Part shown: piece by piece, positions 3,329 through 49,955 of the stretch | Position numbering within the stretch: the stretch's first letter is position 1 | Layout of the letters: each line of letters starts with the position of its first letter | Assembly (NCBI GenBank): GCA_000002435.2 | Contig: CM018792.1 | Strand: one strand, 5' to 3' | Source of the DNA: Giardia intestinalis | Taxonomy: Eukaryota | Length of the DNA: 64,000 bases | Made by a program: the position numbers and the translations under genes | The notes under the pieces: generated by a model | Database searches by the model: none | What the model saw: the letters and a program-made list of their open reading frames with translations, nothing else | What the model was told of the DNA's origin: nothing

Positions 3329-6300
3329 TTACAGAGGTTTCAAGGGTGTCTTAGGCTGAAGCGACTCGGGAGGCTGTGCAAGCCGTCGTGATGCATTGGC
3401 AGAGGCACCCCTCGCTATGACAGACTTCGGTAAGGACCGCACAGACTGTACACCTGGGGTTACGGTGCTTGAGACAAGGAGCGGCGTGTCTGCCGGTTTT
3501 GTGCTTGTAGGGTTGATCCTTAACTGCGCAGAACAGGTGGCTAGCGTTTTGAGTTTGTTCACTGCTTGCTGCTTCATAACACTTGAAGAAAAGGAGCCCC
3601 TCATGTGTTCCCATCCGTCTTTGTGTAGGTTAATGCTATGAAGATGACCAGAATCGTCCACCATTCTATCATTAAATATCAGCGGATTGCCCCTACTATC
3701 TCTAAGGGCAGAGAGGGATGGTATAGAGCCTCTGGCCGCAGATGCCCTTAGTAAAGACTTTTCGGTCACGTCATTCAAATAGCATTTGCTCTCTATTGAA
3801 GGAATAGCATCCAGATCCTCCACTTTCATGCGGGGTGAAAGTGAAGCAGGCTCGTCTGACACACTCTTTGATCTATTTCTACAGATAGTCACAGCTTTGA
3901 AGGACGTGACGGATCCTGCACGGTTGTTAGAAGCAATAGATGGCAGTTTTTCGAGGCTAGTTGAAACGACTTTTACGGTTAACAAGGGCTGAGTGTCCGA
4001 TGAGGTTCTCTTGGCGCTATCATACGCTTGCGAATTGTCGTAGCTTTTAACGAGAAATGCGTCGTCTCTCTTCTTAATTAGATCTGTGAGTGATGATAGC
4101 AGTCTTCTATGCGCCGTTTCATTAGAGAGAGAAGCTCCCAATTTGGATTCATGCAATTCGGATTGATTGGGTAGGTTTTGCCTGCTGTCGTTAATCTCCT
4201 CACAAACAGAACACTCTGAGACAGCATCGGAATCCGGACATATATATGGAATTTGGGGTGCTTCTAATATAGAAAGTTCGGGGCTGACACAAACGTGATC
4301 ACCGTTTGCTGCATCCACTCTAGGAGCTAGTGTATCATGTGCCACAGCAGATGAGCTCTTTGCATCTAGAGTTGGCGCAGGCGTCGATTCTATTTGGGAG
4401 TTCAGAGAGTTGATGATATCAGGATTCCGAAGCATCGCCCCCGACTCCATAACCACCGCCATAATATTAATGTCCTTAGGGTCACCACCGATCCCTGACA
4501 TATATTCCACTGCTTTCCTGTACCGAACCGGTGCTGTATCGGTGTCGTAGATAAGAAGCGTCGGCTTTTGAATAGTTGATCCTATCTTATCAGGGTTTAG
4601 GAGTGAGGTATTGGCCATCCGAGTCAGTTGTTCTTCCAGTTCTGCAGCTTCTTCTGCAGACACATCTAATTTTCCTGTTTTGATGTCTATTGCGTGGAAA
4701 CCTTTTCGTGTGCGTCCACCCACGCTTTTTGCTCTTCGTTCCGCAAGATATATGTCTTCCTCTCTCTTCTCAGAGAATAGCGCAATGCGCTGCAGACATG
4801 GTGGCTCGAGTCCTGAGATTTCGTTAGATGGTCCTTTATCTGAGAGAGCGCCTCCTTCAATAGTGGCCCACGGAGACATTTGGGCACGATGTACACCACC
4901 AAAGAGTATACAGGAGCTCGATCGCTTCATTCCTGGCCTCGGTTCTGTGAATGCAGAATCTTCTGCGGTAATATCCCGTGCCCCATCAACAATGCTGCAA
5001 CTGTCGATAGAATGGGGAGCAGTTTGACGTGCAGAAAGGCAAGTGCTATCAGCAGAGAATGAAGGAGCCGTATTTGTGGGAGTAAGCGATGGTAGTTGGT
5101 GAAGTGGTTCGGTTGAAAATACGTTCCCAAGAGGCATGTCCTTGTAGTTATGAACCATTCTGTGGCGGTAAGAATTAGGATTGTCATCAGTGAAATAATC
5201 TACTCGAGGTTGATGCCCAGATAGCAAACTAAGGTCTGTTTGAACCACGACTGAGTGTCCACTACGGGGAGTGATGGCTGGATCATATATGCTGACTTTT
5301 TGCAACATGTAAGTATAGTGGGTGTCGGTCTGCTGCTTTGCACTTCCAGCTCGACTAGTTACGCGGCTAGAGTTTTTACTAGACCCTCGACTACTTAGTA
5401 GCGAACAGGTTGTATCTGAGACATCGCTGATAACTCTATTATGTGTACTATATTGTGCATATTCACCATAGAACGTGATGTTTCCCGCTGAGGAAATGAA
5501 CCCAACAACGTCTCCGAACGAATCAAAAAGATAAAGTCTTCCAGAGACATTTGTGGGCCTCTGTTGGTTACTTCTTGACGGAAAAGAACGCAAAGTTGAT
5601 GAGGCACACAAGTCGTCAGGGGGAATTTGGAGCTCGAGAGAGGTGACACTAGGCCTCAAATCGCACGGTATAATGTACGAAGTAGCGGGATTCTTAATTA
5701 TATGTGCTGGAAGATGGTCTGTACTACATAGCAGATCCTTGAATGGATGTGGATCGTCTAGTGAAAGAGATTGGACAGTTAGTCCTTCAACTGGGTTGAT
5801 AGGTAGTGATGCAGAGCGCTGTAGTATGTGGGGCTGTGTTTGCAGAGAACTGTCACCAGGGATAGATGAACTAGTAACTTTTAATAGTGGCTGTGATATT
5901 GCGGTTGTATCTGCCACAGTCTCCGCTGGTGTACACTGCAAATGTGGAGGGCTTGTTTCTACTGCAGTTGCATCTTGTAAAGAGATAAGACACGCAGCTA
6001 CTTCTTGTCTCAACCTATCCATCGTCGCAGTAGCAGAAGTTGATGGAGAATCGGCGCCCTTAAGCACTGCTCCCAAAAGTTCTGTAAACGTATTCTTAAC
6101 AACCAGTTGAAGCTCAGCAAGGTCGGCTGTGTTGGCCATACTTTTGCCAATAAGTCCCATGGCTGTATCAACAGCGCTAGCAATAGTATCGGTTGCTTGC
6201 ATTTTATAACGCATTCTGTGGGCCTCCCTCTCCGATAACTTAGCGAGATACGCTTTCCGTTTCTCTCCTAACTTTTTTCTTGTCGTCTCAGCCAAATTGT

Positions 6301-8740
6301 ACAATCTACTAAACACATCGTCTGGTCTGTCAAGGCCCATTGTACGTGAGTTATAATGTATTTGGAAGCCGCTCGTATTCTTTCTAGTTCTAAGAATAGA
6401 ATCAGCAGCATACGATGCTCTATTGACATGTGGGTTATACCCGTCTGCCTCCAGATCGTCTCCAATGCTCCCACGTCTGTCATCATCCGCCCCATTATGA
6501 ACACCAATAGATACATCTCTGTAGTTATGGAGCGCTGCCTTGGCAGCCTTAGCTGCCTTCTGTATCGTTGCCAAATCGACGACCTCTTCTCTATGGGCGT
6601 CGAGTAGCCCTTCAAGCTCCTTTTCTTCTAAAAGACTTACTACTGATTGTCGCAAGGTATCAATCTTCTCCTTTGCGGAAAGAACTACTGCAGAAGTAGG
6701 ACCATTGAGTGAGGCAACGCGATGCTTATTCAAATCAATAGCGGCTTGAAGAACACCTCTAGCTTTCGCCACTAGTGTGCGGCTAAATGCCATAGCTGGA
6801 TCAATGCTTCTAAGCAATTCTTCTTCCTCAGGTGATAACTCCTTATATTCGTTACTGGCACCTGTAGTCAGCTTGGACGACTCTTTAGAAAGGGTCGTGT
6901 CTGGCCCGCATCCAATACTCTTAGTTGTGGTAGTTTTTGCAGGACCTTTGTGGATAGATGAACCCGTTTGCGCAAGTATTGAGTCGTCAAGTGGTACTTT
7001 CTCAGATGCACGTTCCTTCTGAAGGGCTGACTCGGCTTCTGATAGTCTTGAAGCCGCTTGCTCCAGCTGCTTACGCAATCGATCAATTTCGCTTGCTTGC
7101 TCCTTTATTTGTGTAGTAAGATGGGCATTTTCCGAGCGTGCTTTTAGCTCCGCCTCAGTATCCTGATGGAGACGCGCACTAGGTGAGTCTTCTCTTCTAT
7201 CCTTTGGAATATATTGTGGAGACCAGGGGGCAGTTTGAGAGGCCTCAGTCTTTGTTTCACTCATGGATCCCAATTTGAGTTGCTCAATTTCTTTCTCTTT
7301 AGCAGCCAACGCTTTTAACAGCTTGTCAACTTGGTTCTTTAACTTCTCCGTCTCAGCAGAGTCTTTCTTAGAGATCTTAGCATCGCCAGAACCGCTGTTC
7401 TGAAGCTTTTCCGAGTTATAAGATGACTTAAGCTTATTTGCTAGAGCAACAGTACGCTGCTCAGCCTCATCTATGCCCTTTGTGTACCTCTTCTGTAAGT
7501 TTTCCATCTCCTTCATCTTTGCGTCATAGTTGGCATGCATCTCTGCAAGAAGCCTGTCAAGCTCATCTGATTCTTTCTTCAGCATTCTCAATTGGCGGTG
7601 GCGGTCGTCTGTGGCATCTAGGACTCCAGTTAAGCGCTTTATCTCCGCTTCCATGAACTCATTCTTCGCATTTAGTTGAGCTATTAGCTGGCGTTTCTCT
7701 TCTATTTTACGTTCTAACAGTTTAACATCATCTTCTAGTTCTCGCAAGAGGCGCCGTTGCTTTAAGCTCAAAAGCTGCTTTTCAGTTCCTGTGTCCTCCT
7801 CGTCCTCGTCTAACCCTTCATCAAATTCCTCCGACCAGGCCCCTCGCTTGCTTTGCTTAATATCCATATAATCTGGCTTGTACTGAACATTGGTGGAATC
7901 GGGGGCCAGTCGGCCACGCCAGTGAAGCTGCTCTTTGAGAGTTATGATCCGTTGGATGAGTACTTTGCGATCTATCGCATTAAGTGTAGCCGACTGAGAA
8001 ACACCTAGCTCAAATTCGGCGAGCTGATTCTTCAACTGGTCTACCAACCGTCTCAAGTCGTCCAGCTCATCAAGCATTGTTTGCTTTCGAAGCATGTCAG
8101 ACTCTAGCGTTCGCGCCACAGCTACCTCAATTTCGTGATACAGCTGAGGAAGAACCAGACTATAAATGGATGATTCTGCTTCGTCGAGAAAAGGCAGAAA
8201 GATAGGCAGCGTACTCTTCGGATTCAAATGGTCATATTTTGAGTTGCAATCTAAGATATCTTCGAACATGACAAAAAGCTTCCTTTCCTCGATGTTAGTT
8301 TTCAATTTCTTGAACACAACAGACGCAGACTTATAGACTATCTTCTTAGTGCTTAGAATGAGATTTGAAATTTCACGCCTACTAGCGGGGTCGATCATAC
8401 TGTACAGGGAACCTGTTAGCGTTGCTTCATCCAGGCCACTGCTAAAGAGTTTCGTATCTAGAACAAAATCTGTGAGGAAAGCATTGTCTGCTTGCTTGCT
8501 TTGAAGAAGCTGAGTCCCATGAAGTGTGGTCGCCGTAGTGTTAGATATATTTGACTGCTCCATGGGAGCGTCACGAGACTTCTGATCCTCCCTTCGGGGC
8601 TTAGACTCTGCAGTACTGTCTTCACAAAGTACGAGCGGAGACTCTACACTGCTTATACCAATGAGATCTCCAGTGTGTTCAGTTGCTGGCCTGCCAACGC
8701 TAGACTCAGGAGAGGCAGGCCCTTCCACGGCATCATGCAT
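3329..8740 (-). CDS. Large coiled-coil protein, about 1803 aa, function unknown.
   Basis: A 5.4-kb uninterrupted ORF. The central region is long heptad-like Glu/Lys/Leu-rich. The track start at 8851 is GTG. The first ATG (MHDAVEGPAS) is at 8740, preceded by gtaaattttggATG. Confidence 0.7.
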   Translation of the reverse strand: MHDAVEGPASPESSVGRPATEHTGDLIGISSVESPLVLCEDSTAESKPRREDQKSRDAPMEQSNISNTTATTLHGTQLLQSKQADNAFLTDFVLDTKLFSSGLDEATLTGSLYSMIDPASRREISNLILSTKKIVYKSASVVFKKLKTNIEERKLFVMFEDILDCNSKYDHLNPKSTLPIFLPFLDEAESSIYSLVLPQLYHEIEVAVARTLESDMLRKQTMLDELDDLRRLVDQLKNQLAEFELGVSQSATLNAIDRKVLIQRIITLKEQLHWRGRLAPDSTNVQYKPDYMDIKQSKRGAWSEEFDEGLDEDEEDTGTEKQLLSLKQRRLLRELEDDVKLLERKIEEKRQLIAQLNAKNEFMEAEIKRLTGVLDATDDRHRQLRMLKKESDELDRLLAEMHANYDAKMKEMENLQKRYTKGIDEAEQRTVALANKLKSSYNSEKLQNSGSGDAKISKKDSAETEKLKNQVDKLLKALAAKEKEIEQLKLGSMSETKTEASQTAPWSPQYIPKDRREDSPSARLHQDTEAELKARSENAHLTTQIKEQASEIDRLRKQLEQAASRLSEAESALQKERASEKVPLDDSILAQTGSSIHKGPAKTTTTKSIGCGPDTTLSKESSKLTTGASNEYKELSPEEEELLRSIDPAMAFSRTLVAKARGVLQAAIDLNKHRVASLNGPTSAVVLSAKEKIDTLRQSVVSLLEEKELEGLLDAHREEVVDLATIQKAAKAAKAALHNYRDVSIGVHNGADDDRRGSIGDDLEADGYNPHVNRASYAADSILRTRKNTSGFQIHYNSRTMGLDRPDDVFSRLYNLAETTRKKLGEKRKAYLAKLSEREAHRMRYKMQATDTIASAVDTAMGLIGKSMANTADLAELQLVVKNTFTELLGAVLKGADSPSTSATATMDRLRQEVAACLISLQDATAVETSPPHLQCTPAETVADTTAISQPLLKVTSSSIPGDSSLQTQPHILQRSASLPINPVEGLTVQSLSLDDPHPFKDLLCSTDHLPAHIIKNPATSYIIPCDLRPSVTSLELQIPPDDLCASSTLRSFPSRSNQQRPTNVSGRLYLFDSFGDVVGFISSAGNITFYGEYAQYSTHNRVISDVSDTTCSLLSSRGSSKNSSRVTSRAGSAKQQTDTHYTYMLQKVSIYDPAITPRSGHSVVVQTDLSLLSGHQPRVDYFTDDNPNSYRHRMVHNYKDMPLGNVFSTEPLHQLPSLTPTNTAPSFSADSTCLSARQTAPHSIDSCSIVDGARDITAEDSAFTEPRPGMKRSSSCILFGGVHRAQMSPWATIEGGALSDKGPSNEISGLEPPCLQRIALFSEKREEDIYLAERRAKSVGGRTRKGFHAIDIKTGKLDVSAEEAAELEEQLTRMANTSLLNPDKIGSTIQKPTLLIYDTDTAPVRYRKAVEYMSGIGGDPKDINIMAVVMESGAMLRNPDIINSLNSQIESTPAPTLDAKSSSAVAHDTLAPRVDAANGDHVCVSPELSILEAPQIPYICPDSDAVSECSVCEEINDSRQNLPNQSELHESKLGASLSNETAHRRLLSSLTDLIKKRDDAFLVKSYDNSQAYDSAKRTSSDTQPLLTVKVVSTSLEKLPSIASNNRAGSVTSFKAVTICRNRSKSVSDEPASLSPRMKVEDLDAIPSIESKCYLNDVTEKSLLRASAARGSIPSLSALRDSRGNPLIFNDRMVDDSGHLHSINLHKDGWEHMRGSFSSSVMKQQAVNKLKTLATCSAQLRINPTSTKPADTPLLVSSTVTPGVQSVRSLPKSVIARGASANASRRLAQPPESLQPKTPLKPL

Positions 8741-8843: not shown

Positions 8844-9860
8844 TCATGCACACTTGGTCTCGCCGTCTGCTGTCACCATGAAGTCACGACCCTCTTTGCA
8901 ACACATTCTTGCCGTCACATAGGGCTCCAGCATGAGGGGGTGAACCTCTATCAGCGTGTCACCTGCGCGGCGCTTAGGATACGCATATGCCTGGCGAAAG
9001 TTCACGAGGCAGTTGGGAACATCAGCAGCAAGCTCCCGAATAACCTCACGCTTCTCTTCGTTTCGCTCCTGAAGCTTCTTAATCCTGCAGTACTCTCGAT
9101 CAATCCGCTCTAGCTCCCTGAGGCTCTGCTGGTCGTGGCAACTCGCTGCAGGGACTGCTGGCCGGAACATGGTACGCGTCACGCTAGTCCTGTAGGGGTT
9201 GCAGTTAGTGTCAACTGGGCCCTCCACAATCAGGGGGCGGGGAATGTCTGGCGCTGTGGACGCACGAGTGAGGTTGAGCTTTTCTATCAGGAGTTGCTCA
9301 GGCGTTCTATTATACCTCTCATCTTGGCACTGGCAGAGTCCGTTGCAGCATCCAGTACAGTAGCAGGAGCGTTTGCACCCGCATGGCTTTGGTTTATCGG
9401 AGTTGAGGATCTCGCAGGTCTTACAACGGGTCGATGCGCCGTGTGGACACGCATCCGTGAACTCTGTCTTCCCGAAACTGGACCTGGAGATGGGGGGAAG
9501 GTCTTCAATAATGCGAGTCCCTGGTGGTGTTACCTCTAAGGGATACTGACACTGTGGACATGGGTGGTCCACGCTAAATGGGCTCTTTAAATTGTTGAGC
9601 CGTAGCTTGTTCTGGGTTGTAGTTCCTGGAGGGTGATAGATGGTCCTTGCAGATTGGTTGTTCGGCTGATCAGCAGCGTGCTGCTTGTTAGAAACCTTTT
9701 GCTGGCGACCTTGGGGATGGGTGGCCAGATGCTTATTAAAATTAAAACAGTAGCATCCCAGCCTGGGATAGATCCAGCACTTCTTGCAGTTACATGCTCC
9801 TTCGCAAAATCTGTAGCCGGGCTCCTTCAGCCGGCAATCAAGGGCAGGGTTGTAAGGCAT
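8844..9860 (-). CDS. Cysteine-rich protein, paralog A of a 4-gene tandem family.
   Basis: The ATG at 9860 is preceded by gctaaaaataaaaATG (the track start 9902 is TTG). It has an N-terminal CEGACNCKKCWIYPRLGCYCF cluster and further clusters CPQCQ and CGCKRSCYCTGCCNGLCQCQ. A C-terminal motif FRQAYAYPKRR is shared with the neighbouring ORFs. Confidence 0.55.
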   Translation of the reverse strand: MPYNPALDCRLKEPGYRFCEGACNCKKCWIYPRLGCYCFNFNKHLATHPQGRQQKVSNKQHAADQPNNQSARTIYHPPGTTTQNKLRLNNLKSPFSVDHPCPQCQYPLEVTPPGTRIIEDLPPISRSSFGKTEFTDACPHGASTRCKTCEILNSDKPKPCGCKRSCYCTGCCNGLCQCQDERYNRTPEQLLIEKLNLTRASTAPDIPRPLIVEGPVDTNCNPYRTSVTRTMFRPAVPAASCHDQQSLRELERIDREYCRIKKLQERNEEKREVIRELAADVPNCLVNFRQAYAYPKRRAGDTLIEVHPLMLEPYVTARMCCKEGRDFMVTADGETKCA

Positions 9861-9956
9861 TTTTATTTTTAGCGGACTCCTAAGGCGGTAGCGGATAGTC
9901 AATGACTTCCCTGTTTACTGATAACGGTGAGAACACGCATTCCTTGCCCGTTATTA

Positions 9957-10817
9957 TCAATAATTTGCAGTAGCCACTCCGCTCCAATTCCGTATACTCG
10001 TGACCCGCCTGTTATTCTGGAGCATGGCGAGCTCCTTTCTACAATCTGGCTTATTAGTGAAGCTGTTGTGCCCGTATTCGAGTGGATTGCCGACGGAGAT
10101 TTCTTGTACACTGCGGGGCCGAATTAGTGAGTGGAAGTCCCGACGGTTGCCCACGGGCCCACTCCTCTGTCCATACGTATACACGTTGTCTGTTCCATTC
10201 TTCAATCTGCTTTCCATCCCTGCGTGAGCCCACGACTTCTCGTACGTGGCAGCCTGGCGAGCTCGTTCTATATCTCTGTTGCGGGACTCCCAATCGAAAA
10301 ATGCTGGAGTGCGATCCATGGACGTGAGGAAAACCTCATTAGTCTCCTGCTGGGCCCCTGTGCATCCCGCTCTGTCTGTTCCCGGAAGCTGACTCTCTTC
10401 GGGAACCCAGGGCGGATAAGGAATCGTGGCAAGGTCCATCAGACCAGAGGATGCGTGGCCACAGCATGTTTGATTCTTTGGGTGTGGAACGCACGAAAAG
10501 CGGCCCTCTATATCTAGATTGTGCGGGAACTTATAGATATATCTGTTGGGTACGGGCACTGCACAGGTTGGCCTGAGAGGCTTTATATGGCAAATGTTGG
10601 TGTGAGGATCGATCCCTTGGCACGGAAGCGCATACGGATTGAGACTATTGTAGCTGAATGTGCCGTCTCTAGGTGGTGCATTGACTTCGCCGTGATGACA
10701 TATCCCAACACACTGGCAGACTCTTTTATAGTGGTGCGCGCGATTGCAGCACGTATAACAGTCGCACTGGCCATGCTCTTCGCAGGCGGAGGAGCTGCAG
10801 TTAGGTTTTGGCCACAT
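9957..10817 (-). CDS. Cysteine-rich protein, paralog B.
   Basis: True ATG at 10817 with gttaaaattaaATG upstream. The N-terminal cluster is CEEHGQCDCYTCCNRAHHYKRVCQCVGIC. It also carries a PCQGIDP motif and ARQAATYEKS, and ends ...ANY like paralog D. Confidence 0.55.
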   Translation of the reverse strand: MWPKPNCSSSACEEHGQCDCYTCCNRAHHYKRVCQCVGICHHGEVNAPPRDGTFSYNSLNPYALPCQGIDPHTNICHIKPLRPTCAVPVPNRYIYKFPHNLDIEGRFSCVPHPKNQTCCGHASSGLMDLATIPYPPWVPEESQLPGTDRAGCTGAQQETNEVFLTSMDRTPAFFDWESRNRDIERARQAATYEKSWAHAGMESRLKNGTDNVYTYGQRSGPVGNRRDFHSLIRPRSVQEISVGNPLEYGHNSFTNKPDCRKELAMLQNNRRVTSIRNWSGVATANY

Positions 10818-10901
10818 TTAATTTTAACCCGGCCTGCGCGGGCTTCTGAGACAAAACAACCGGAGTTCATTCAGTTGACTAAAAGTTATGTGTGTCTGTT
10901 A

Positions 10902-11474
10902 TCAGCATCTCTGAAAGTCCATAGCAGGAGACGGCTGTCTCCGATTGAAGTCGGGACCACAGTGCGCCTTTATCTGTTTTGTTCGCCAGTCGTCCCAGTA
11001 AAAGCCGGTGCATCGCCCGCAGACGTACTTCTTTCCAAAGAGATCTCCTGGCTGGTAGCAGCAAGGGATAGCGTCTTCTGCTGTCCCGGCCTTGCTGCTA
11101 TGATCATTGAAAGGCAATAGATCCGAAGGTCTCAGTGCCTCATGGAACGTTGTGCATCCGTTGTTCAACCTCCACTCTTGACAGGCAAGTCCTCGGAGGG
11201 CCTCTTTATTAGCCTCACTCCTTTCTCTGTGGGCATAAGCGCGCTGTTTGTAACTGGTATAGTCGCCAAGCGTTTTGGTGTAGTTAAACGTGTTTACAGA
11301 CAGGTGTGGATCAAGCATGGCCATTGAGAAGATATCTGTTTGACAAGGCCTTGTTACTGCGTATATTGGGCAGCTCCCTCGGTGTGTGCGCAGATTCATT
11401 TTTGAAAACAGATGACCAATACTGCTGAAAGTACGCCCGGAACCGACTATGGGGTATAGTGAAATATACAGCAT
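10902..11474 (-). CDS. Short member (C) of the same Cys-rich family.
   Basis: True ATG at 11474. It carries the KQRAYAHRERS motif (compare A: RQAYAYPKRR; D: RDQAYVHALQ) and a C-terminal cluster CCYQPGDLFGKKYVCGRCTGFYW resembling D's GCCGEVFDPDHPCCEAC. Confidence 0.4.
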   Translation of the reverse strand: MLYISLYPIVGSGRTFSSIGHLFSKMNLRTHRGSCPIYAVTRPCQTDIFSMAMLDPHLSVNTFNYTKTLGDYTSYKQRAYAHRERSEANKEALRGLACQEWRLNNGCTTFHEALRPSDLLPFNDHSSKAGTAEDAIPCCYQPGDLFGKKYVCGRCTGFYWDDWRTKQIKAHCGPDFNRRQPSPAMDFQRC

Positions 11475-11719
11475 GAGATTCTAGCATGCCAACTGAACCC
11501 TTTTATAGGATTTCCTTACAGACTAGAAGATATAAGGGTAGACCGTAAGACTTAGACTGCTGCTGTATGCCAATTCAATCCAGGGCTCGTCTACTCATAT
11601 AACCATTTTGCTGTAAGGCTTCGTTTGCTCTCAGATTGACGTCCTCTCATCCGGAAAGTTTGATGACGACAATTTCCAAATTGATAGATTGTTCAGTACA
11701 ATTCAAGAGAACATTTACA

Positions 11720-12646
11720 TTAATAGTTTCCTTTCCACGTTCTGTGAAAGTGTGCTGCTGGCTTGGAACCTGTGAGCGACCAATCGAGCATGTGCTGCCT
11801 TTGGGTGTTCTTGGCTTGAAGCGCGTGCACATATGCCTGATCACGTTTCGAGTCAACAAGATCGCACGTTTGGGATGTGTAAGACACGTTTGCAATGTCC
11901 GTTGATTTATAGGGATTGTATAGATGGATTCTTCCAGATCTTAGATGAGGGCTAAGCGAGGTATATAAAGCTTGAGTCGGAACATCATACCAGCTGTCTC
12001 CGCGGGAGGTTTGAAGAATGGGTGGTTCATTTGGATTGACAACGTAACGGGTAGTTGTCTTCAGAGGACAGGTAGTATAATACTTCTCTTGCTTGCGTGC
12101 ATTCGCTGATTCCGTGAAAGTAATGGCCTTTTGTGGAAGACTGCATACATAAACGGGACGTGAAGCTTGTGCATTTAATGTACCTCTTGCACATCTGGGA
12201 TTTCTTCGCATTGTTTGTGCAAATCCTTGTCTTGTATTAGGACGCCTGCCGTGCGCCTCTGCACAGGCCTCGCAACAGGGGTGGTCTGGATCGAAGACCT
12301 CGCCGCAGCATCCCAGTGCGCCCTCCCCGAAGGCACGGGGGCCAGGCCTGGGGCTGCACTGGGAGAAGCTGCGCGGCGGGCAGCCCGGGTCGATGCACGG
12401 ACGGCCGTTCTCGATGGGGTCGATGGCCTGCCACTCGGGGTCGAGGGCGCGGCGGGCCATGCGGCGGCGCTCAAAGGCGAGGTACTGGTTGACGTCGTCC
12501 TGGGTGACATTGTTGTTCGGGGGGCAGTGGCACCCGTGCCTCTCCCAGTTGGGACACTCGCAGCACTTGCAGGGATTCAGCGTGGTGACCCCGCAGTATC
12601 TAGGGCCGTCCTCCTGCCTGTGGAGCGCGGGTCTGGCGGAAAACAT
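11720..12646 (-). CDS. Cysteine-rich protein, paralog D.
   Basis: True ATG at 12646 with aacttaaaaATG upstream. N-terminal cluster CKCCECPNWERHGCHCPP, then PCIDPGCPP, GCCGEVFDPDHPCCEACAEAHG and RDQAYVHALQ. It ends ...KGNY. Its 5' half (about 12200-12650) is conspicuously GC-rich. Confidence 0.55.
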   Translation of the reverse strand: MFSARPALHRQEDGPRYCGVTTLNPCKCCECPNWERHGCHCPPNNNVTQDDVNQYLAFERRRMARRALDPEWQAIDPIENGRPCIDPGCPPRSFSQCSPRPGPRAFGEGALGCCGEVFDPDHPCCEACAEAHGRRPNTRQGFAQTMRRNPRCARGTLNAQASRPVYVCSLPQKAITFTESANARKQEKYYTTCPLKTTTRYVVNPNEPPILQTSRGDSWYDVPTQALYTSLSPHLRSGRIHLYNPYKSTDIANVSYTSQTCDLVDSKRDQAYVHALQAKNTQRQHMLDWSLTGSKPAAHFHRTWKGNY

Positions 12647-12700
12647 TTTTAAGTTGCCCAGAGCGCCGGCCCCAGCTTCACAGGAGGGAGACGTGGGGGA

Positions 12701-29600: not shown

Positions 29601-31587
29601 ACGGCACAGAGGCCCCAGGAATAAACGAAGCGATTGCAAATGGAAGCAGTGAAATCAGAAATTCCTCAGTTGCAGTTGCGGGTAAAAATGAGCGCAAAAG
29701 GTCTTTGTGCTCCTCGCTAAAATCGATAACCATGTAACCATCGTGGCTAGCAGAGAAAATAGTATCTAATGAAAATAAAAATGCAAAGCAGGAGGCAAAT
29801 AGCTTACTCGTCATGCTCGACTCATGCTGTTGAAGACCAACCATATTACTTAGGTGCAGGTGTCGGCGAAACAATAAGAGCAATAATTGAGTGGCAAGGG
29901 GAACCATTGTATATGTTTCCGATATTGAAGAAGAGTCCTGAGTGTAGCATTCTTCTGAATTGACGGGGATTGGTGCAGATGATTTATCTTCTAGACAGTG
30001 CAAAACATAAAGTAATTGGATGCCGGAAAGAATTGTGTGCAATAACCTTACGCTGAGTAATTCTGAGCACAGCTCATCCATTAGTACTGCCGAAGTGCCC
30101 ACTGGATTTGAAAGGAACTCCGTCAAGACTTGCATCAGCCTGCAATAAGCATTGACAGCCTGCCTAAGAAGGGCATGCTGCGAAGTGTCCATCCGTGCGT
30201 CTCTTAGCATCAAGTGCAGATGCTTAGAGTGATGCTTGCTTGCATGTGTTATGTGAGCTATGATATCAGTTACATGTGTATTATTTTGAGAAACGGCACT
30301 TGGCACAGGAGAGGGATCAGATTTGAGGGATCGCCATGTGTAATCTAGAGCATGCACACATACAGCTAGATAGCAAGTCACATTAAGTGAAGATAAAGCA
30401 GCAAGGCCACTAGCTTCTGCACAAAGAGAGATATTGTGCTGTAAGGACGAAGGAGACGAGCTGTAGGAACTGACAAGTTCGGCACACACTCTGCCATAAT
30501 CCGCATGCAGCCAATCATCAAAGTAGGCAAACACAACGTGAATAAGTACGAAACGCTTGTATGCCTTCATATAAATTCTATTCGTAAATGCAGACAGTTT
30601 TCTCAGTGTATCGTGGGCATACAATGTATCTAGTATACTCTTAGATACTTCAGACACGCTGCCGAGCCGTTGCCCCTCCACCTGGTTAGGCAGACCAAGG
30701 CCCGCTGCCAAGTGGCAAAAGTGCGAGCCCCTGTTTGCAACCAGAGCAGCCAGGCTGTCCGGGGCGATACATGCAGAAAAAAGCCCCACCAATACCGTTG
30801 CGTTACGTAGCTCCGCCGCAGCCACACCGTTAATCCTGTCGGTTACGGCCTGCACATCAGAAAGCCTGCACATCAGAGAGTCGGCGTCGGCCAACTTGCG
30901 CGCCCGCCTGCATGTGAGAAGCACCTGGAAAGTGTCGCTCGCTGTAAGAAGCCTGGGGAAGGCCGCCGGGTCAGCGGGGGGCAGCCACGGATTGGCCGAC
31001 GAAGCGGCTCGATGGGCTGCGAACGCGCATGCGTCAGCCCGCAGAATCTCCAGCAGCGGAAGGCAAGCGCTGAAAGGCTCTCCGCAGCCCTTGCCAAAGC
31101 CCAGCAGCATGCACAGCAGCGCTGTACCACACGCATAAACGCTCAGAAACGGAGCTGCGTCAGTGCCCAGGGGAGCGGTCAAGACGTCCCGCACAGTGCC
31201 TACGCCCCCGATGACACAGAGCTCCGCAAGGGCTGCTCCGAATGTGGTGGCGTCGAGTAAATGCGCGCACACAAGGCACAGCAGCAGCCTTGTTGTAGGC
31301 CAGTTGAGGACGCATTCGCTGCTCTCCGGCTGGAGGTCCAGAATCCAGAGGACGTACGGCTGCTCCACCCCGAGCTGTAGGTCTGACAGCAGGACGATCC
31401 GCTCCAGCCTCTCGGGCCCCTCCCCCGCTGTGCGTATTGCAAGGCTCGCTGCGAAGGCACACGAGACAGGGCTGCGCCGTGCATCCTCGAGCAGGCCGTC
31501 ACTCAGCGCCAGCAGCTCCGCATCCTGCACGACGCCGCCGGTGGCGTGGTAGTTCGCCATCAGGGAGCGCAACGAAGACGCAAGCAT
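23686..31587 (-). CDS. PI3K-related protein kinase (PIKK family; ATM/ATR/TOR-like), about 2633 aa, with a FATC-like C-terminus.
   Basis: The kinase N-lobe is RLILKCGEDTVADYAVMQF. The catalytic loop is GLGDRHSCNILID. The activation segment is VHFIDFEAVFEY...VPFRLT. The C-terminus ...CMFGGWMAFL is FATC-like. The region upstream is helical-repeat (HEAT/FAT-like). The track start 31644 is TTG and the first ATG is at 31587. The first roughly 280 codons lie inside a GC-rich island, so the true start is uncertain. Confidence 0.85.
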   Translation of the reverse strand: MLASSLRSLMANYHATGGVVQDAELLALSDGLLEDARRSPVSCAFAASLAIRTAGEGPERLERIVLLSDLQLGVEQPYVLWILDLQPESSECVLNWPTTRLLLCLVCAHLLDATTFGAALAELCVIGGVGTVRDVLTAPLGTDAAPFLSVYACGTALLCMLLGFGKGCGEPFSACLPLLEILRADACAFAAHRAASSANPWLPPADPAAFPRLLTASDTFQVLLTCRRARKLADADSLMCRLSDVQAVTDRINGVAAAELRNATVLVGLFSACIAPDSLAALVANRGSHFCHLAAGLGLPNQVEGQRLGSVSEVSKSILDTLYAHDTLRKLSAFTNRIYMKAYKRFVLIHVVFAYFDDWLHADYGRVCAELVSSYSSSPSSLQHNISLCAEASGLAALSSLNVTCYLAVCVHALDYTWRSLKSDPSPVPSAVSQNNTHVTDIIAHITHASKHHSKHLHLMLRDARMDTSQHALLRQAVNAYCRLMQVLTEFLSNPVGTSAVLMDELCSELLSVRLLHTILSGIQLLYVLHCLEDKSSAPIPVNSEECYTQDSSSISETYTMVPLATQLLLLLFRRHLHLSNMVGLQQHESSMTSKLFASCFAFLFSLDTIFSASHDGYMVIDFSEEHKDLLRSFLPATATEEFLISLLPFAIASFIPGASVPSDFVSLYLKQISQLYDTNPRVQSYYKLICRIADSCHTVATLNQSAQTSRYMLAYIFFQYFLVQVCGEKYHLITTTISELCMEQICKQTSVAFCLFSSAYLPSLIINLYLPLSRTALSKELALLCVESRTPVMMSYPRLSVEDFVTVTGALAILSCVDSTIASALAYHASPKDLSLSDATLHDALVVAILFLTVLYADTEALAGAKTLKKVELVTSSIKAIKELVALPIFANVKPHKLFSEGIESYNGATAHIFRLLSVIFILMTALFSFSRDVLHRVQLLHTLVSSKKKGSAPAEMPISIFANLSNYTGFLFRITSLCHMKPLLGSICYREAYIDDEPKAPDVVALWNRLKVMYLQVIIYGIHTPVILESLLDYFGIFFYAVSTLVPGFLYTQLAVDMFLTLEEVIDTDQNNSIFTIYWLGYIRLLLEHSGETLTQLIELIIDGRRISEETKRVARLLVSIYRKENEMRHTQLYSSVDSQLHDVDDPAAVLALLELLVDASHTPCEFLWRVLIPLVIHVLNGLFVRSYLSLLITLLPHGANLFDQRGMLQIRGGGTPLAHLLLYIKAYQGRIENTKLKQSAEQVLKTYGTLLDYRTLNPSNGPRDSQKGPEGKVTRGSCGYFTDFITRVIEGGDLYAASCITELNEYFSTLGEDQKTVYISSKIYQRMQSFVELLPIVIRDTEKRHLLNTSLVITNASSFFAIFIDLFLKLLQKGVTQKNIKLAPEAQKHMAHVSDLWAIVEPYINVSQAIGAAFYDALLSLLLEYSDLSLLIDGIGRFLALFFAALITDHCKLVEHIESHFISSLYVTSVETLYSTIPSSDRLTNSNEKDCLAELEQDEPSMRDTLIGDVLDLRRFVAMKQIIELVAFQPYRFSKNSMELLHQIRISDEAIELDVISSFLIKTHFRKYFEEQEAASSWQTLVAELSPEVDRTLYMSRLDSSFEDSMSLTRTAPKTAQKPSVDYLTFLSGHSMLVGNPLRAIMIAGVYWAANEVTYKGVFVDILQYISRSYATVFSICFLKVFRPDAFFSILTLLAEGATDHLSTIATERKNAVMVLRTGVINKLIAGSAEQQKLIYNQDINDTSSNAQLVDRFYGISYTLLGSLYAAVSSYPLHDSFSIPQWRLHNNVINGVPESHTSCGTTATSIVTIRNLLHQYSNMLLRVSMWTELTQFLREQDFFDQMLLALDQFPANTHAHFIAQLRRHKSLLFQHNCQFLYKQILNLACARYRECRYTDLSVRLLVHEFIDNNLFDFAEDTQSFIIEAMFGELMVDLDGIEGKNSSIVSMSTRCSFVGNMYSALATYTFILAIIHRMLFRRPLGGPDSFSKADCWSRFYQKCLVTALSAWMLVVCSLTKLLAYNAQLLMDSNEKNKVSVSFLTSSLLYFAPATDFCLCMDKHQKVAGTIIELIEGTIGSGAGAASDEQKGIPGVEAHVLNFLLALGLDTLITEANEKLTEIIEGSPAILLQNQFHNICSMVIRLCDTKINLIAVEYSSMSVDVMKNHILNVIAKKLIPYSAHFDIAIRQFGVHMNRDYSLEEEALRHPVFNSLIKRIFAVLEAHEVYNPAYTRYIIFSTTMTNVLKYMQLEYAKKSLNTSKECLLPHIISGSFFLIPTLEAISSLREFEYSMTTDKRSPHQIDNHTECVSVLEHYYEYYSSRYAASYVTMVRHFSSKRAPLLFRMSRTKNDHGTRLILKCGEDTVADYAVMQFTEELAKCSVNTFFKPYFVAVLINIPKNQVSIIEHIDGNVVPIDELLTPVFMGAKTKAAEFINEQEPNEDGCFPTFDLFMASVTALSHMEMALSKTHPCRFIALSQKNQRMFATTLAHWCAVCIVTGLGDRHSCNILIDTDDGSVHFIDFEAVFEYPKLLSYAELVPFRLTALIAQLLGPTGIHGCFYWELVKMVSLIQENAPAFINVFYPLAIVRASLGYVRQVKEMLETQRAEEIVNAALAQAADSSRLSCMFGGWMAFL

Positions 31588-32192
31588 GAGCCCTTCTCGG
31601 CAGCCTCTTCGGTTGTCCGCCTGTCCGGGAATTATTCTTGCCAAATTGCATACGATTGCATTTTGAGATTTCGTCTCCTTCCTTGGTGGACTGGAGCTTC
31701 AGCGTAGCGTCGTGTCTCCCAGGCCCGTCCACGCAGTGGCAGGCTACAGAGCCCGTTTGGCTGTCGCACAATGCACTGGTCTACCGGGCACGCTGGGCAG
31801 CATCTTAGCGCCTCCGACGACGAGGAGCCACTGGCCCCTGGACTGCACCACTACGTCACCTATCGGGCACGCGCATGCTTCTTTCCGGGCCCCGTCCATC
31901 CAGCTGCCAGCCCCGGAGGCGGAGCAAGTCGGGAGACACCCCTCTGGCGAGAGCACGACGGACAGCAAGGGCCGGCAGCCTTGCCACGGTTGCCCTCCTC
32001 GGCAGAGAGCCCGGGCCATCGCCCACTCCCCGCGGTCTCCGAAGAGCGCTCGCCTCCTGGTCCACCGGTCCGCATGCGCATCTATTTGCCACGCTCTAGC
32101 AACGAAGGCCCTCACCGGTCTGGCTATCCTGCACTCGACGTGGAAGGTGTTTACATGCGTAATGCACCGGCCGTGGACCAAATCTTAACTTT

Positions 32193-33521
32193 ATGGCGCC
32201 CAGGGCGTCGTCGCCGGCGGAGGCTCCCTCCTTCCCGTCTGTGTCCTCTGCGCTGCAGATGCTTGTGCGGCCGCCTGTTCCAGCGTCAACAGGCGGGCAT
32301 GACCCCGGTGGAGCGAGTCGTCTCCGAGAGGGGCGCAGGGCCTGCGACCTGCGTTCTAGGCTGGGCCTTCTTCTGGGCCAGGCTGACGCGATGTCGGGGA
32401 GAAGCCGAGTGGGCCCGGAGACGCACTGCGCAAGGCTCCACCAGCTTCTAGCGCGGCTCGCAAGGCTGCAGGAAACAGACCGCTTGCTGGACGCCATTGA
32501 GTGTTCGAGTGCCTGCATGGCACAGATCAGCGACCCGGCCTGCCTCCGGTGCCTTCTTCGCGCACACTCCGCCCTAAGCATATCCCCGCCTCCGGCTGGC
32601 CGTGGCGTCTCTCTAGAGAGGCAGCGGCAGTGCATGGCGTCGTCCATCTGTGAGCACTTTTCAGCAGGAATCCGAGGGGCGCTGGACAGGATCCTTGCTT
32701 CGCGCCTCCGCGCCTACCACGAGACGCGCGCTCAAGCGCATCTTACGAAGCCAGAGGCCTCCGACCAACTGGCTAGCCTCCTGTCCGGCCTCCGCGTGGA
32801 GGATGCTGCCCCCATTTCGGCGCACTGGAGCGACCAGCTCTTCTACACGGCTCTCTGCCGCGAAGCAGCCGTTGTCTGCGAGTCCCTGTCTTCACTTGCC
32901 CTTTCGGTGTCGGAACAGGTTAGGCGCTGTATGCACTTGGGCGACAGCGGACCTTTGACTGCGCTGCTCCACGCCGCCAGGTCTTTCGTTTCTGCGTGCG
33001 AGCACGCCTTTTCTGTGTCCTTCCCGACTGGGCTGATGAGTGAGAGCGGAGAGGCAGGCCTTTTGCTGGGCGGGATCGAAGAGACGGGGCCCTACTTTTC
33101 TGCGCGATTGAAGCTGGCCCGGGCAAGGGGGCGGCCTCGTTTAATCGGGCGGCTGTTCGGTTGGTCCGCTGCGTCCCCCATCGAGGCATATGTAGAGCGT
33201 ATTCGTCAAAACTTCAGCGGCCCTGCAGCATGGGCTCCTCCCTACCCAGAGCCGGGCCAGAGCCTTGTGTCTGACAGCTCTGCTGCGAGGCGGTGGCACA
33301 CTACCGGCGCAGGCCAGCTCTTCGTCGACTTCCTTGTTTTGTTTCTGGGGTCAATCTTTGATGCATTTACTCTCGGGGATCAGATTGCAACCTTCCCCTC
33401 TATAGGCCTGTATCTCAGCAACAATCCAGTGGCGGAGGAAGGCGGGCTATTCGCACGGGTCTTCGCTACATACTCAGGAATGGTTGCCAGTGAAGCAGGA
33501 GGTCTAAGGGCTATCGAGTAG
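32193..33521 (+). CDS. Hypothetical protein (442 aa) inside the GC-rich island.
   Basis: True ATG at 32193 with aaatcttaactttATG upstream. The amino-acid composition is not purely Arg/Pro/Ala/Gly. No similarity I recognise. GC-rich DNA leaves many frames open, so caution is needed. Confidence 0.4.
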   Translation: MAPRASSPAEAPSFPSVSSALQMLVRPPVPASTGGHDPGGASRLREGRRACDLRSRLGLLLGQADAMSGRSRVGPETHCARLHQLLARLARLQETDRLLDAIECSSACMAQISDPACLRCLLRAHSALSISPPPAGRGVSLERQRQCMASSICEHFSAGIRGALDRILASRLRAYHETRAQAHLTKPEASDQLASLLSGLRVEDAAPISAHWSDQLFYTALCREAAVVCESLSSLALSVSEQVRRCMHLGDSGPLTALLHAARSFVSACEHAFSVSFPTGLMSESGEAGLLLGGIEETGPYFSARLKLARARGRPRLIGRLFGWSAASPIEAYVERIRQNFSGPAAWAPPYPEPGQSLVSDSSAARRWHTTGAGQLFVDFLVLFLGSIFDAFTLGDQIATFPSIGLYLSNNPVAEEGGLFARVFATYSGMVASEAGGLRAIE

Positions 33522-33820
33522 AGCCATTACTCTGTCCCGATGAGCCGATCCCACCTCGCACCCGTCGCCCGTGCAGCGCCGTCCCTCCGGGCACACGACA
33601 GGGCGCCTCGTGTGCGACCAGGCCAGCGGGCTTCTCCCAGGGGCAGCCCTCGGAGTGGGAGTCTCAGAGAGGAGGCCGCCGGGGCACCCCCACCCGCTGC
33701 ACGCAATCCGGTCCACACCACAGCCTCTCTACTGATACCCCTGTTCGTGGTGAGCGCGCTTGCAGTAACCTACCAGACCGGCAAGTGCGAGACGGTCGGT
33801 AGCACAGAGATCTGCACCCA

Positions 33821-35776
33821 GTGCAGGGCCGGGGCGTCCCGGTCGACGGCTTCTGCCGGCCCCCCGGCTCCATCCAGGCCGCGGCAGCCGGGTGCACCAA
33901 AGCGGGTGGGGCTGCCCTCGATAAGACGGCAACCACCTGCGGAAAGTGCGGCGATGGGTACTTCCTCTTCATGGGCGGGTGCTACAAGACAGAGAGTCAG
34001 CCCGGCAGCGAGATATGCACAACAGCCAGTAATGGACTGTGCACTGCTTGTAACACAGATAGTCAGTACATATTCCAGAACCCTGCTGCACCATCAGAGA
34101 AGGGTAGCGAGTGCATCTTGTGCTGGGATACTACAGATAGAAACGGGGTCATGAGAGTGGATAACTGTCTCAAGTGCACGGCACCTGGTGGCAATACAGG
34201 AGCTGCTAAGTGCACTGCCTGCACAGAGGGACACTTCCTACACACAGATGGGACGTGCCAGGCATGCGGCGCCGGTTGCTCCGAGTGCACGTCCAACACA
34301 GTGTGCACGCACTGCATACCTGGAAGGTACCTGAAAACTGGTGGCAGCTGTGTCGGTGATAACGGCTGTGACGCACAACACTATGCAGACCCGCAGAGCG
34401 GAGAGTGCAAGTCGTGCCCCACTGATACAGCGATACCGGAGTGCACCGCGTGTGCATACAATGATACCCTCAAGAAGCCCGTATGCAGCGAGTGCGACAG
34501 TGGACAAGCAAAGAATCTTCTCAAGAAGAAGGTCGACGGGACTGCGGAGTGCGTCGATGCTGCTGGGTGCGCAACTGTCGGACAGGACGGGACGCACTTT
34601 CGAAGTGACGGAGATACCAAGTGTATACTGTGCGGTGATAGCAGTGGGTCTGGCAACGACCAGGGCATAGCAGACTGCGAGATGTGTAGCAAGGAAGCCT
34701 CTCAGAAGCCGGTGTGTAAAGCATGCCTCCCTGGATTCTACTTGAGTAGCACTTGCAAGCCCTGTGCAGGAAACTGCGCAAAGTGTGGCTCAACAGGAAA
34801 CATACAGGACTGCACTGAATGCATGCCAGGGTACTTTCTAAAAACCGAGGGTGTAACAAAGGAGTGCGTCCCTTGTAGTGACACAGCCAAAGGTGGCATC
34901 GATGGATGCAGTGTCTGCTCGAATGATGGCAATACTTTCAAGTGCACTGACTGTAAGCCTAACTATAAGAAGCAGCCCAATGGAGGAGCAGGGGATGACT
35001 ATACGTGTGTGAAGGTGTGTGAAGACCCCACTGCCTGCGGGGGGACAGCTGGCTCTTGTGATGCAATAGTGATCGACAATGATGGAGTAGAGCATCACTA
35101 CTGTTCATACTGTGGGGAGAGTACTAAGGTACCAATTGATGGCATCTGTGCTACTGATAAGAAAGGTAATACTTGTAACAGTCATACATGTACACAGTGT
35201 GCTCAAGGGTACTTCTTATACATGAATGGCTGTTACAAGGTTGATACAGAACCAGGAAGCCTCATGTGCTCGAAAGCAACAACAGCTGGTGTCTGCACTA
35301 CTCCCAATGCCAACAATAGGTACTTCATAGTCCCAGAGGCAAAGGCTACTGATCAGTCTGTGTTGGCCTGTGGCAACCCCCTTGGCACACTAATAGGTAC
35401 TCAAGACAAAGCTAAGGCATACGTCGGGGTGGATGGCTGCTCCCAGTGTACAGCCCCGACACAGCTAGAGGCTCCTGGTATGACCTCCGCTGTGTGTACT
35501 GCCTGTGACAGTGGTAGGAAGCCCAACAAGGACGGCAGTGGGTGTGTGCTGTGCTCTGTGGGTGATTGTAAGAGCTGTGTGATGGATGATGTGTGTGGGG
35601 AGTGCAACAGTGGCTTCAGCCTAGACAGCAGTGGGGCCTCCTGCGTGTCCTCTGGCGCCAACAGGAGCGGGCTCTCCACGGGGGCCATCGCGGGGATCTC
35701 CGTCGCTGTCATCGTCGTCGTGGGGGGCCTCGTGGGCTTCCTCTGCTGGTGGTTCCTCTGCAGGGGGAAGGCATAA
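33821..35776 (+). CDS. Variant-specific surface protein (VSP), with an intact body but a disrupted 5' end.
   Basis: There are dozens of CXXC motifs, GYFLFMGGCYK and GYFLYMNGCYK (GGCY) motifs, and a C-terminal TM ending GFLCWWFLCRGKA-stop. The track start is GTG. The signal-peptide-like sequence SLLIPLFVVSALA and ...EICTQC lie upstream in another frame (33723-33830). Confidence 0.85.
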   Translation: MQGRGVPVDGFCRPPGSIQAAAAGCTKAGGAALDKTATTCGKCGDGYFLFMGGCYKTESQPGSEICTTASNGLCTACNTDSQYIFQNPAAPSEKGSECILCWDTTDRNGVMRVDNCLKCTAPGGNTGAAKCTACTEGHFLHTDGTCQACGAGCSECTSNTVCTHCIPGRYLKTGGSCVGDNGCDAQHYADPQSGECKSCPTDTAIPECTACAYNDTLKKPVCSECDSGQAKNLLKKKVDGTAECVDAAGCATVGQDGTHFRSDGDTKCILCGDSSGSGNDQGIADCEMCSKEASQKPVCKACLPGFYLSSTCKPCAGNCAKCGSTGNIQDCTECMPGYFLKTEGVTKECVPCSDTAKGGIDGCSVCSNDGNTFKCTDCKPNYKKQPNGGAGDDYTCVKVCEDPTACGGTAGSCDAIVIDNDGVEHHYCSYCGESTKVPIDGICATDKKGNTCNSHTCTQCAQGYFLYMNGCYKVDTEPGSLMCSKATTAGVCTTPNANNRYFIVPEAKATDQSVLACGNPLGTLIGTQDKAKAYVGVDGCSQCTAPTQLEAPGMTSAVCTACDSGRKPNKDGSGCVLCSVGDCKSCVMDDVCGECNSGFSLDSSGASCVSSGANRSGLSTGAIAGISVAVIVVVGGLVGFLCWWFLCRGKA

Positions 35777-35786
35777 GTACTTAGGT

Positions 35787-35793
35787 AGTGAAT
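35787..35793 (+). terminator. AGTGAAT, a Giardia-type AGTRAAY polyadenylation motif.
   Basis: It lies 11 nt downstream of the VSP TAA (35774-35776). Confidence 0.5.
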
Positions 35794-36203
35794 GCTCCGT
35801 TGGTGGTTAGTGCTCAGTGAGCGTCTGCTGTCCATCCACTCGGTGCTGTTCTGAGGGCAGTGTGCGCTGGGAGCGGTCTCCAGGGTCCTCCCGGCCGGGG
35901 CAGGGCAGGCGACAACGGAGCCACGTTTGCAAGGGACTGTATGAAGCATGAGAGTCTATGCAGGGGTGTGAATGGTAAAGAGGAGTATCTGTGTTTTAAA
36001 TAGCATCATAAGATGAGAAGGCATATATAATCAATGCTTGCTGATTAGCACTCCTTTAATAGCAGATAGCCATTACTAAAGAACCTAAAAAGAAGGCGAC
36101 ACCTCAAGGCTGAGACACGATAGACAGGCCCCATGACGAATTATTCGACCGCAGTTAACGAGCTTAAAGATTATTGAGCAGACCAATGTGAATAAACGGA
36201 AAA

Positions 36204-43976: not shown

Positions 43977-44313
43977 ACAAAACCAGATTTTCACGCTCTG
44001 TGGCTATTGTCGTGCCATTATGGAATGCTAGGTACGCTTGCTGAGCATGTGATGCCAATAAGGTCGCAGAGGCAGCAAATCGTCGTATTGCAACAGTATT
44101 TTCCCGACTAATTATACTGTTTTCCAGCCCCAGGTCAACCCCATAGAGCCAGCTAGCGAAGCTCGTGGCCAGATGCTCGTCGTTCATCTATAACTTAGGT
44201 TCTAAATTGATTTTATTCGTCATGTTTTACAAGGAAGAAGCAAGTCACGCTAATTATGCAATTAATTCACTTGTTGCTTTGCAAACACTACAACTTGTAG
44301 TATGATACCGGCG

Positions 44314-45510: not shown

Positions 45511-45544
45511 CTTTTTGCAGGCGCGCAGGGAACGGCGCAGGGAA

Positions 45545-46494: not shown

Positions 46495-46502
46495 TTTTTT
46501 GA

Positions 46503-49901: not shown

Positions 49902-49955
49902 TGTAAATTCCGATCGCAAGTTCATGTGAAATTGCAGCCAACACAAAATTCCTGG

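Follow-up and report, generated by a model that had tools for sequence, protein, structure and literature searches.

The 64,000-nucleotide stretch of DNA analyzed here (the window) belongs to chromosome 4 of Giardia intestinalis WB (assemblage A), where gene coordinates place it at ~1,934,341-1,998,340, and harbors a cluster of four genes for cysteine-rich proteins. These genes, referred to below as A, B, C, and D, are four separate minus-strand open reading frames (ORFs) located at 8844..9860, 9957..10817, 10902..11474, and 11720..12646, respectively, with intergenic gaps of 96, 84, and 245 bp. By exact-sequence look-up, we identified them as GL50803_15446 (A, whose product exactly matches KAE8304252/XP_001707807), GL50803_15445 (B), GL50803_19834 (C), and GL50803_11604 (D), all of which are annotated as "hypothetical protein." Gene A encodes a hydrophilic protein of 338 aa with 27 Cys residues, 9% Pro, and an isoelectric point (pI) of 8.7, gene B a protein of 286 aa with 17 Cys residues and a pI of 8.3, and gene D a protein of 308 aa with 19 Cys residues and a pI of 8.9. 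A preliminary description of the window, made from the nucleotide sequence, had correctly located the four same-strand ORFs and their spacing of 84-245 bp, and had interpreted them as a tandem array of paralogous, lineage-specific genes whose rapid divergence would suggest a recently expanding family; it had also correctly taken the organism to be Giardia.

Each of the four ORFs had also been credited with an ATG and an AT-rich initiator of its own. This is true for A, B, and D, where an A-rich initiator stands right before the ATG (TAAAAATAAAA, GTTAAAATTAA, and CTTAAAA, respectively), but not for C as it was placed. The only A-rich initiator of gene C (TTTTCAAAA) precedes an inner ATG at position 11399, which is also the start of the 165-aa RefSeq model; the 25 codons upstream of the inner ATG are not conserved, and no ATG is found among them in assemblage B. 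Because the inner ATG carries the initiator and the upstream codons are unconserved, the earlier coordinates of C are 75 nt too long: the 190-aa ORF that reaches 11474 is an over-extension, the true start is the inner ATG at 11399, and gene C thus occupies 10902..11399 on the minus strand and encodes 165 aa.

All four genes are represented in published trophozoite proteomics (PMC11527388, supplement): 18 peptides with 60% coverage for A, 9 peptides with 50% coverage for B, 2 peptides with 22.6% coverage for C, and 16 peptides (13 of them unique) with 70.8% coverage for D. Assemblages A, B, and E all have the ORFs as separate units, as does Giardia muris for three of the four. Since the ORFs lie apart in several genomes and peptides exist for each of them, the possibility that a single gene has been split by sequencing-error frameshifts is ruled out. 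The ratios of nonsynonymous to synonymous substitution rates (dN/dS), computed by the Nei-Gojobori method between WB and the assemblage B isolate GS with synonymous sites near saturation, are 0.044 for A, 0.044 for B, 0.098 for C (0.08 when counted from the inner ATG), and 0.168 for D. With a dN/dS of 0.04-0.17 between assemblages A and B, all four genes evolve under purifying selection, and the products of A and B are 87-89% identical between these assemblages, so that the proposed rapid divergence is not what we observe. For two of the proteins a cellular location has been published. Tagging with green fluorescent protein (GFP) placed A at the basal bodies, the cytoplasmic posteriolateral axonemes, and the median body, and A is already listed in the resulting catalogue (PMC4931700); GiardiaDB assigns B to "basal bodies, all cytoplasmic axonemes" (PMC11527388 and its supplement).

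The four proteins are hydrophilic, with a grand average of hydropathy (GRAVY) of -0.72 to -0.83 and a maximal 19-residue Kyte-Doolittle value of no more than 0.79, and basic (pI 8.3-8.9), and they contain 6-9% Pro and 6-8% Cys. The exact Cys contents, 5.9-8.0% (6.1% for the 165-aa model of C), agree with their earlier designation as Cys-rich. Hydropathy analysis of A-D revealed no signal peptide and no transmembrane segment, the N-terminal hydropathy being negative. Since they are hydrophilic, basic, and lack a hydrophobic segment, the products of A-D are cytosolic rather than of the VSP or HCMP type; the preliminary description had likewise held that they are neither VSP nor HCMP proteins. 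They are real and abundant Cys-rich proteins. An hmmscan search of Pfam-A at E ≤10 returned zero families for A, B, C, and D, including the TCR/CXC and VSP models, whereas the window's own VSP gene at 33971..35776, used as the positive control, was recognized with 2.9e-35; at E ≤1 there was likewise no real match for the G. muris orthologs or for the D paralog GL50803_15605 described below. A sequence search of the PDB with all four proteins yielded nothing below E ~0.1 and no chain in the solved Giardia or axoneme structures. It is extremely improbable that the cluster encodes secreted or surface proteins of the VSP, HCMP, or HCNCp type. The cluster proteins share with VSP and HCMP proteins their restriction to Giardia and their high Cys content, and apart from the latter nothing speaks for such an assignment; they differ in having no signal peptide, transmembrane segment, CRGKA tail, or Pfam VSP match, in Cys motifs of the CxC and CC kinds in place of the CxxC-dominated arrangement of VSPs, and in the cytoskeletal location of A and B.

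Comparison with G. muris revealed one-to-one orthologs of D, B, and A, arranged and oriented as in G. intestinalis, including GMRT_11092 for A (273 aa, 49% identical), GMRT_11091 for B (278 aa, 49% identical), and a 326-aa ortholog of D (36% identical). In G. muris, the gaps within the trio are shorter (~21-22 bp between D and B, 28 bp between B and A), and the genes flanking the trio differ between the two species. Because the orthologs are one-to-one and keep the same order, the D-B-A trio is older than the split between G. intestinalis and G. muris, and the array is not a recently expanding one. To our reading this deep conservation of the trio is a new observation. A counterpart of C was not found in the 20.8-kb G. 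muris syntenic locus, where the D-B gap lies at 9114..9136 (locus L001); either the G. intestinalis lineage acquired C, or G. muris lost it. Despite its absence from the G. muris locus, C evolves under purifying selection, and its product has been seen by mass spectrometry. The claim of lineage specificity withstood our searches: word-based searches with A, B, and D, together with a scan of the D-family profile over all 1.84e9 cluster representatives, returned Giardia sequences only.

We examined the proposed paralogy of the four genes by several methods. In an all-against-all BLASTP comparison within a four-sequence database, no match between different proteins was better than E ~0.16-0.29. 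Alignments of the orthologs of each gene were then built from WB, P15, GS, and G. muris, and hhalign on the resulting profiles assigned a probability of at most 0.9% to each of the six pairs of A, B, C, and D. Finally, profile-profile Smith-Waterman alignments were compared with column-shuffled nulls, shuffled either globally or locally in 20-column blocks, at two gap settings. With standard gap penalties, only the A-D pair exceeds the null (z of 4.6 with global and 2.4 with local shuffling, the latter with p = 0.02), and its alignment consists of a 16-column block, CNCKKCWIYPRLGCYC in A versus CKCCECPNWERHGCHC in D. With the looser gap setting, the A-B pair gave p = 0.003 globally and 0.04 locally, values that fail correction for the number of pairs and settings tested. 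The remaining pairs stay within the shuffled null, and C shows no similarity to A, B, or D by BLASTP, hhalign, or the shuffle test and carries none of the shared motifs. Thus, as judged from sequence comparison, A, B, C, and D are not demonstrably copies of one another, and nothing significant links the four proteins beyond the 16-residue motif of A and D.

Of the features that had been taken to unite the four genes, this motif withstands the comparison. It has the form C-x-C-x2-C-x7-C-x-C and occupies residues 23-38 of A (9747..9794, minus strand) and residues 26-41 of D (12524..12571, minus strand). These are its only two occurrences in all six frames of the 64-kb window, and it is invariant in the G. 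muris orthologs of A and D and present in GL50803_15605 as well. The N-terminal cluster of B (CDCYTCCNRAHHYKRVCQC, residues 18-36, 10710..10766, minus strand) also starts with CxCxxC but continues with an x10 spacer; its last Cys (C36) is lost in G. muris, and the alignment of B with D is not significant. In A, B, and D, CxCxxC begins at residues 23, 18, and 26, respectively, and it is conserved in the G. muris orthologs of all three; the window has 45 ORFs of 150 aa or more, and elsewhere among these the pattern is found only deep within a CHY zinc-finger gene. The N-terminal Cys cluster described as common to the genes thus exists in register in A and D and in a related form with other spacing in B, but not in C. 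The motif of A and D is real and conserved, and loosely so in B; it is compatible with a shared ancestor in the very distant past as well as with convergent evolution of a similar metal site, but a paralogous family of four members cannot be built on it.

Two further resemblances did not survive the comparison with G. muris. At the site of the C-proximal [RK]Q.AY motif, the G. muris orthologs read FRQSNAPP (A), KRRQREYE (B), and KRTLGHVH (D), and the motif is not conserved; of the terminal -NY shared by B and D, only the Asn is retained (-STAN in B, -RGNA in D). Because neither is intact in the G. muris orthologs, we treat both resemblances as due to chance. The Cys residues themselves are better preserved. 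Of the Cys residues of the G. intestinalis proteins, G. muris retains 22 of 27 in A, 13 of 17 in B, and 12 of 19 in D (81, 76, and 63%), above the average residue in the same comparison, in which overall identity is 60, 50, and 41%, respectively. Protein A has in addition a central metallothionein-like cluster with 11 Cys in 33 residues (CKTCEILNSDKPKPCGCKRSCYCTGCCNGLCQC, residues 146-178, 9327..9425, minus strand), and all 11 are conserved in G. muris.

The one demonstrable paralog of D lies outside the window and not in the array. It is GL50803_15605 (hereafter D2), a 382-aa protein encoded on chromosome 4 at ~130 kb from D and on the opposite strand (loci L005 3357..4583 and L006 3001..4149), which matches D with phmmer E = 5.8e-88 and hhalign E = 4.8e-80. 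The similarity is concentrated in a tract of 449 bp (12251..12699, minus strand) that comprises 53 bp 5' of the D ATG and codons 1-132 and is 98.9% identical over 449 nt with sharp borders; beyond it, hhalign follows a fading similarity as far as residue ~205, and no relationship is left between the C-terminal thirds. Within a genome, the tracts of D and D2 are 98.8% (assemblage A) or 98.1% (assemblage B) identical, whereas either locus compared between assemblages shows 83-84% identity. Since the copies group by genome and not by locus, gene conversion between D and D2 appears to be ongoing. The ends of the tract vary slightly between lineages: its upstream end lies ~20 bp farther out in assemblage B, and in P15 it continues for ~8 more codons at the downstream end. 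The GC content at third codon positions (GC3) is 0.86-0.92 within the tract and 0.38-0.48 in the remainder of both genes, whereas the D gene of G. muris has no such step (0.61 versus 0.62); D2 was not found within the 20.8-kb G. muris syntenic locus. This step in GC3 at the tract and its absence from G. muris D point to GC-biased gene conversion that homogenizes the promoter-proximal 53 bp and codons 1-132 of D and D2, the latter encoding a Cys-rich N-terminal module of 132 residues. The conversion tract is a new element of this analysis and provides a clean small example of GC-biased conversion, bearing on how identity is kept up between dispersed copies. A divergent Giardia lineage (SRR22936437, locus L007, 1383 bp) carries a D2-type gene whose N-terminal module has ~72% nucleotide identity to that of G. 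intestinalis. In this gene, GC3 is 0.86 in the module and 0.60 in the remainder, and the higher value in the module suggests that a conversion partner exists in that lineage, too.

D2 was also brought into the comparison of D with the other genes of the cluster. A pooled profile of D and D2, compared by hhalign in local, greedy, and global modes, gave P values of 0.023 against A, 0.015 against B, and 0.44 against C, which is no gain, and the matches of the D-family profile among the cluster representatives were D of Giardia, D of G. muris, and D2, but not A or B. In B, one segment alone, YIYKFPHNLDIEGRFSCV (residues 93-110, 10488..10541, minus strand), has a match elsewhere that is statistically notable. 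It aligns with YVFKVPRKDDTYGRFVCM, which forms residues 197-214 of D2 and belongs to the unique part of that protein; hhalign assigns the match P = 0.0012 and a probability of 19%. In the shuffle test, this motif of 18-26 residues reaches z of 5.3 globally and 4.3 locally. The match is suggestive, and the motif may be a shared module or may have arisen by chance.

These observations bear on a modified form of the original proposal, in which "recent" is replaced by "ancient": A, B, and D, together with D2, would have arisen from one ancestral gene through tandem duplication that preceded the divergence of the Giardia species, and only the N-terminal CxCxxC knuckle and some short collinear motifs would still betray their kinship. 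The genes are adjacent, on the same strand, and alike in length (286-338 aa), composition, and pI; CxCxxC is found at residues 18-26 in precisely the three neighbors A, B, and D; the full C-x-C-x2-C-x7-C-x-C is in register in A and D, is kept in G. muris, and stands out in the shuffle test; B and D2 have the motif just described in common; and A and B share a subcellular location. However, no pair among A, B, C, and D is conventionally significant, whether by BLASTP, by hhalign (all below 1%), or with the pooled D and D2 profile, and the scan of the cluster representatives with the D profile missed A and B. Moreover, CxCxxC is not very improbable given the Cys-rich N-termini, the local-shuffle p value of A-D loses significance after correction for 10 pairs, G. 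muris has not kept the [RK]Q.AY motif, and C has nothing in common with the other genes. On balance, we regard ancient paralogy of A, B, D, and D2 as possible but doubtful.

We compared the cluster with known Cys-rich and cytoskeletal systems. The CXC module of tesmin/TSO1 proteins has the nine-Cys pattern C-x-C-x4-C-x3-YC-x-C-x6-C-x3-C-x-C-x2-C, and the first Cys cluster of the array had been said to resemble it loosely. The resemblance is seen in A, which has a CxC-type cluster with "CNCKK" and an aromatic-C-x-C-F element, so that its CNCKKC...GCYCF looks superficially like CNCKKS.C...YCECF of tesmin. In A, C-x-C-x2-C-x7-C-x-C is followed by 62 residues without Cys; the spacing therefore differs, the third Cys being displaced, and A lacks the second half of the nine-Cys module. 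Neither the four proteins (E ≤10, TCR/CXC model included) nor their G. muris orthologs (E ≤1) match this or any other Pfam model, and A and B are found at basal bodies and axonemes and not in nuclei. That the cluster encodes CXC/tesmin-like, zinc-dependent DNA-binding regulators of transcription thus appears very improbable.

Another function that could follow from the Cys content is the buffering of metal or redox state in the manner of metallothioneins, with the cytoskeletal localization being incidental. The central cluster of A, rich in CxC and CC, would suit such a role, as would the thiol biology of Giardia, which is not known to have glutathione and relies on cysteine thiols; in addition, B and D2 are among the proteins enriched with the proteotoxic-stress factor GiMlf. 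A simple metal sponge would not be expected, however, to have 165-338 aa with long conserved segments free of Cys, for instance residues 57-125 of B, which hardly differ between G. intestinalis and G. muris, nor to give the discrete GFP patterns reported for A and B. We consider this function improbable, though it retains more weight than a role in transcription or at the cell surface.

The SAXO/MAP6 proteins (TbSAXO and SAXO1/FAM154A), which stabilize axonemal microtubules, offer a closer comparison. Like A, B, and D, they have an N-terminal Cys cluster that starts with C-x-C-x2-C, described as motif 1, [GR][KT]CVC[ESR][LI]CTCGK[HC][KR]C (PMC3280300). They are also basic (pI ~8.3-9) and Pro-rich, although the three reference SAXO proteins contain 11.6-20% Pro (PMC3280300), above the 6-9% of the cluster, and these properties are not family-specific. 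Finally, they are located at axonemes and basal bodies, a feature that within the cluster is known for A and B only. Beyond CxCxxC the motifs diverge, with x7-C-x-C in the cluster versus x-C-x3/4-C in SAXO. The microtubule-binding modules of SAXO are Mn-like tandem repeats of ~15 aa (...[TS][NT]YRS[ED][FY]GPKP...; PMC3280300), whereas self-alignment of the A, B, D, and D2 profiles detected no internal repeats above the shuffled null (p of 0.065-0.70). Giardia moreover has a separate SAXO homolog (PMC3280300). Membership of the cluster in SAXO/MAP6 was therefore rejected on the grounds of the misfit to motif 1 beyond CxCxxC, the missing Mn-like repeats, and the lack of a Pfam match, and SAXO/MAP6 is at most the nearest functional analog, alike in layout. 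Among the groups closest to the cluster are the Giardia-specific "hypothetical" basal-body and axoneme proteins catalogued by GFP tagging (PMC4931700), among which A is listed; B has the same type of annotation, and both proteins are without domains and restricted to the genus.

Taken together, the locus holds four separate, expressed genes that are not a recently expanding family, and we lean toward the interpretation that they form a Giardia-only, probably zinc-binding and cytoskeleton-associated cluster. Each product is a hydrophilic, basic, Pro- and Cys-rich cytosolic protein, restricted to the genus Giardia as the searches with A, B, and D indicate. Genes D, B, and A constitute an old micro-syntenic block kept under strong purifying selection; C, placed between D and B, is probably an insert that is younger or lineage-restricted. 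The conserved Cys clusters would coordinate zinc and thereby fold small knuckles in otherwise extended polypeptides, which in turn would serve as structural parts attached to microtubule-based organelles; for D and C, the same role is suggested by composition and neighborhood alone. In this description of the proteins as Giardia-specific and probably zinc-stabilized cytoskeletal components, the locations of A and B are established by data, whereas zinc binding and the placement of D and C are inferred. Zinc binding by the conserved Cys residues is plausible because these residues are preferentially conserved between G. intestinalis and G. muris and because the proteins are cytosolic.

Several points weigh against this interpretation. 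The Cys residues could instead be redox-active, palmitoylated, or engaged in disulfides. AlphaFold2 models built from 4 sequences of the D family and 3 of the B family, both shallow alignments, have a mean predicted local distance difference test (pLDDT) score of 32 in both cases and are unusable, so that they supply no evidence for a fold. Adjacency of genes in Giardia does not normally imply a shared function. In the literature searched, we found no localization for D or C, which in this respect differ from the catalogued basal-body and axoneme proteins and to which the cytoskeletal role is extrapolated. The locations of A and B come from high-throughput C-terminal GFP tagging and not from functional work (PMC4931700, PMC11527388).

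A more specific proposal can be made from the same elements. A, B, D, and GL50803_15605 might be what is left of an ancient family of zinc-knuckle proteins, confined to Giardia and residing on the basal bodies and the unusually long cytoplasmic axonemes, with the N-terminal C-x-C-x2-C...C-x-C module as a common domain for assembly or targeting. We advance this proposal as a speculation that is rather unlikely to hold. If it is true, the importance of the module would be underlined by the conversion that keeps the promoter and the first 132 codons of D and 15605 nearly identical over a distance of ~130 kb while their C-terminal "effector" halves differ. The general importance of these findings is limited: the genes are annotated, two of them are already catalogued as basal-body and axoneme proteins, and the claim of an expanding array fails. 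They do add D (11604), C (19834), and 15605 as candidates alongside 15446 and 15445 in Giardia cytoskeleton biology; we found no mention of 11604, 19834, or 15605 in the text of the literature. They also define a conserved N-terminal C-x-C-x2-C-x7-C-x-C motif that is open to mutation. This motif of A and D is a new element, and neither it nor the D/15605 tract was found in the literature searched.

The surroundings of the cluster have features of their own. Directly downstream of A, a minus-strand gene for ~1,800 aa extends over 3329..8740; in a GTG-extended ORF, its start region overlaps the stop codon of A. This gene is without a Pfam domain and without an ortholog in the G. muris syntenic locus. 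An Rfam scan of the window found nothing. Two stretches of the window are GC-rich against a background of 43-50%, namely ~30000..36000 (57-64%) and ~44000..52000 (64-67%). The latter contains long spurious ORFs in every frame and includes the genes for the CHY zinc-finger protein (44314..45510, minus strand), a WD40 protein (45545..46672, minus strand), and an ankyrin-repeat protein (49956..52175, plus strand). At the edge of the first GC-rich stretch lies the plus-strand VSP gene that served as the Pfam control, whose product contains 11.8% Cys.

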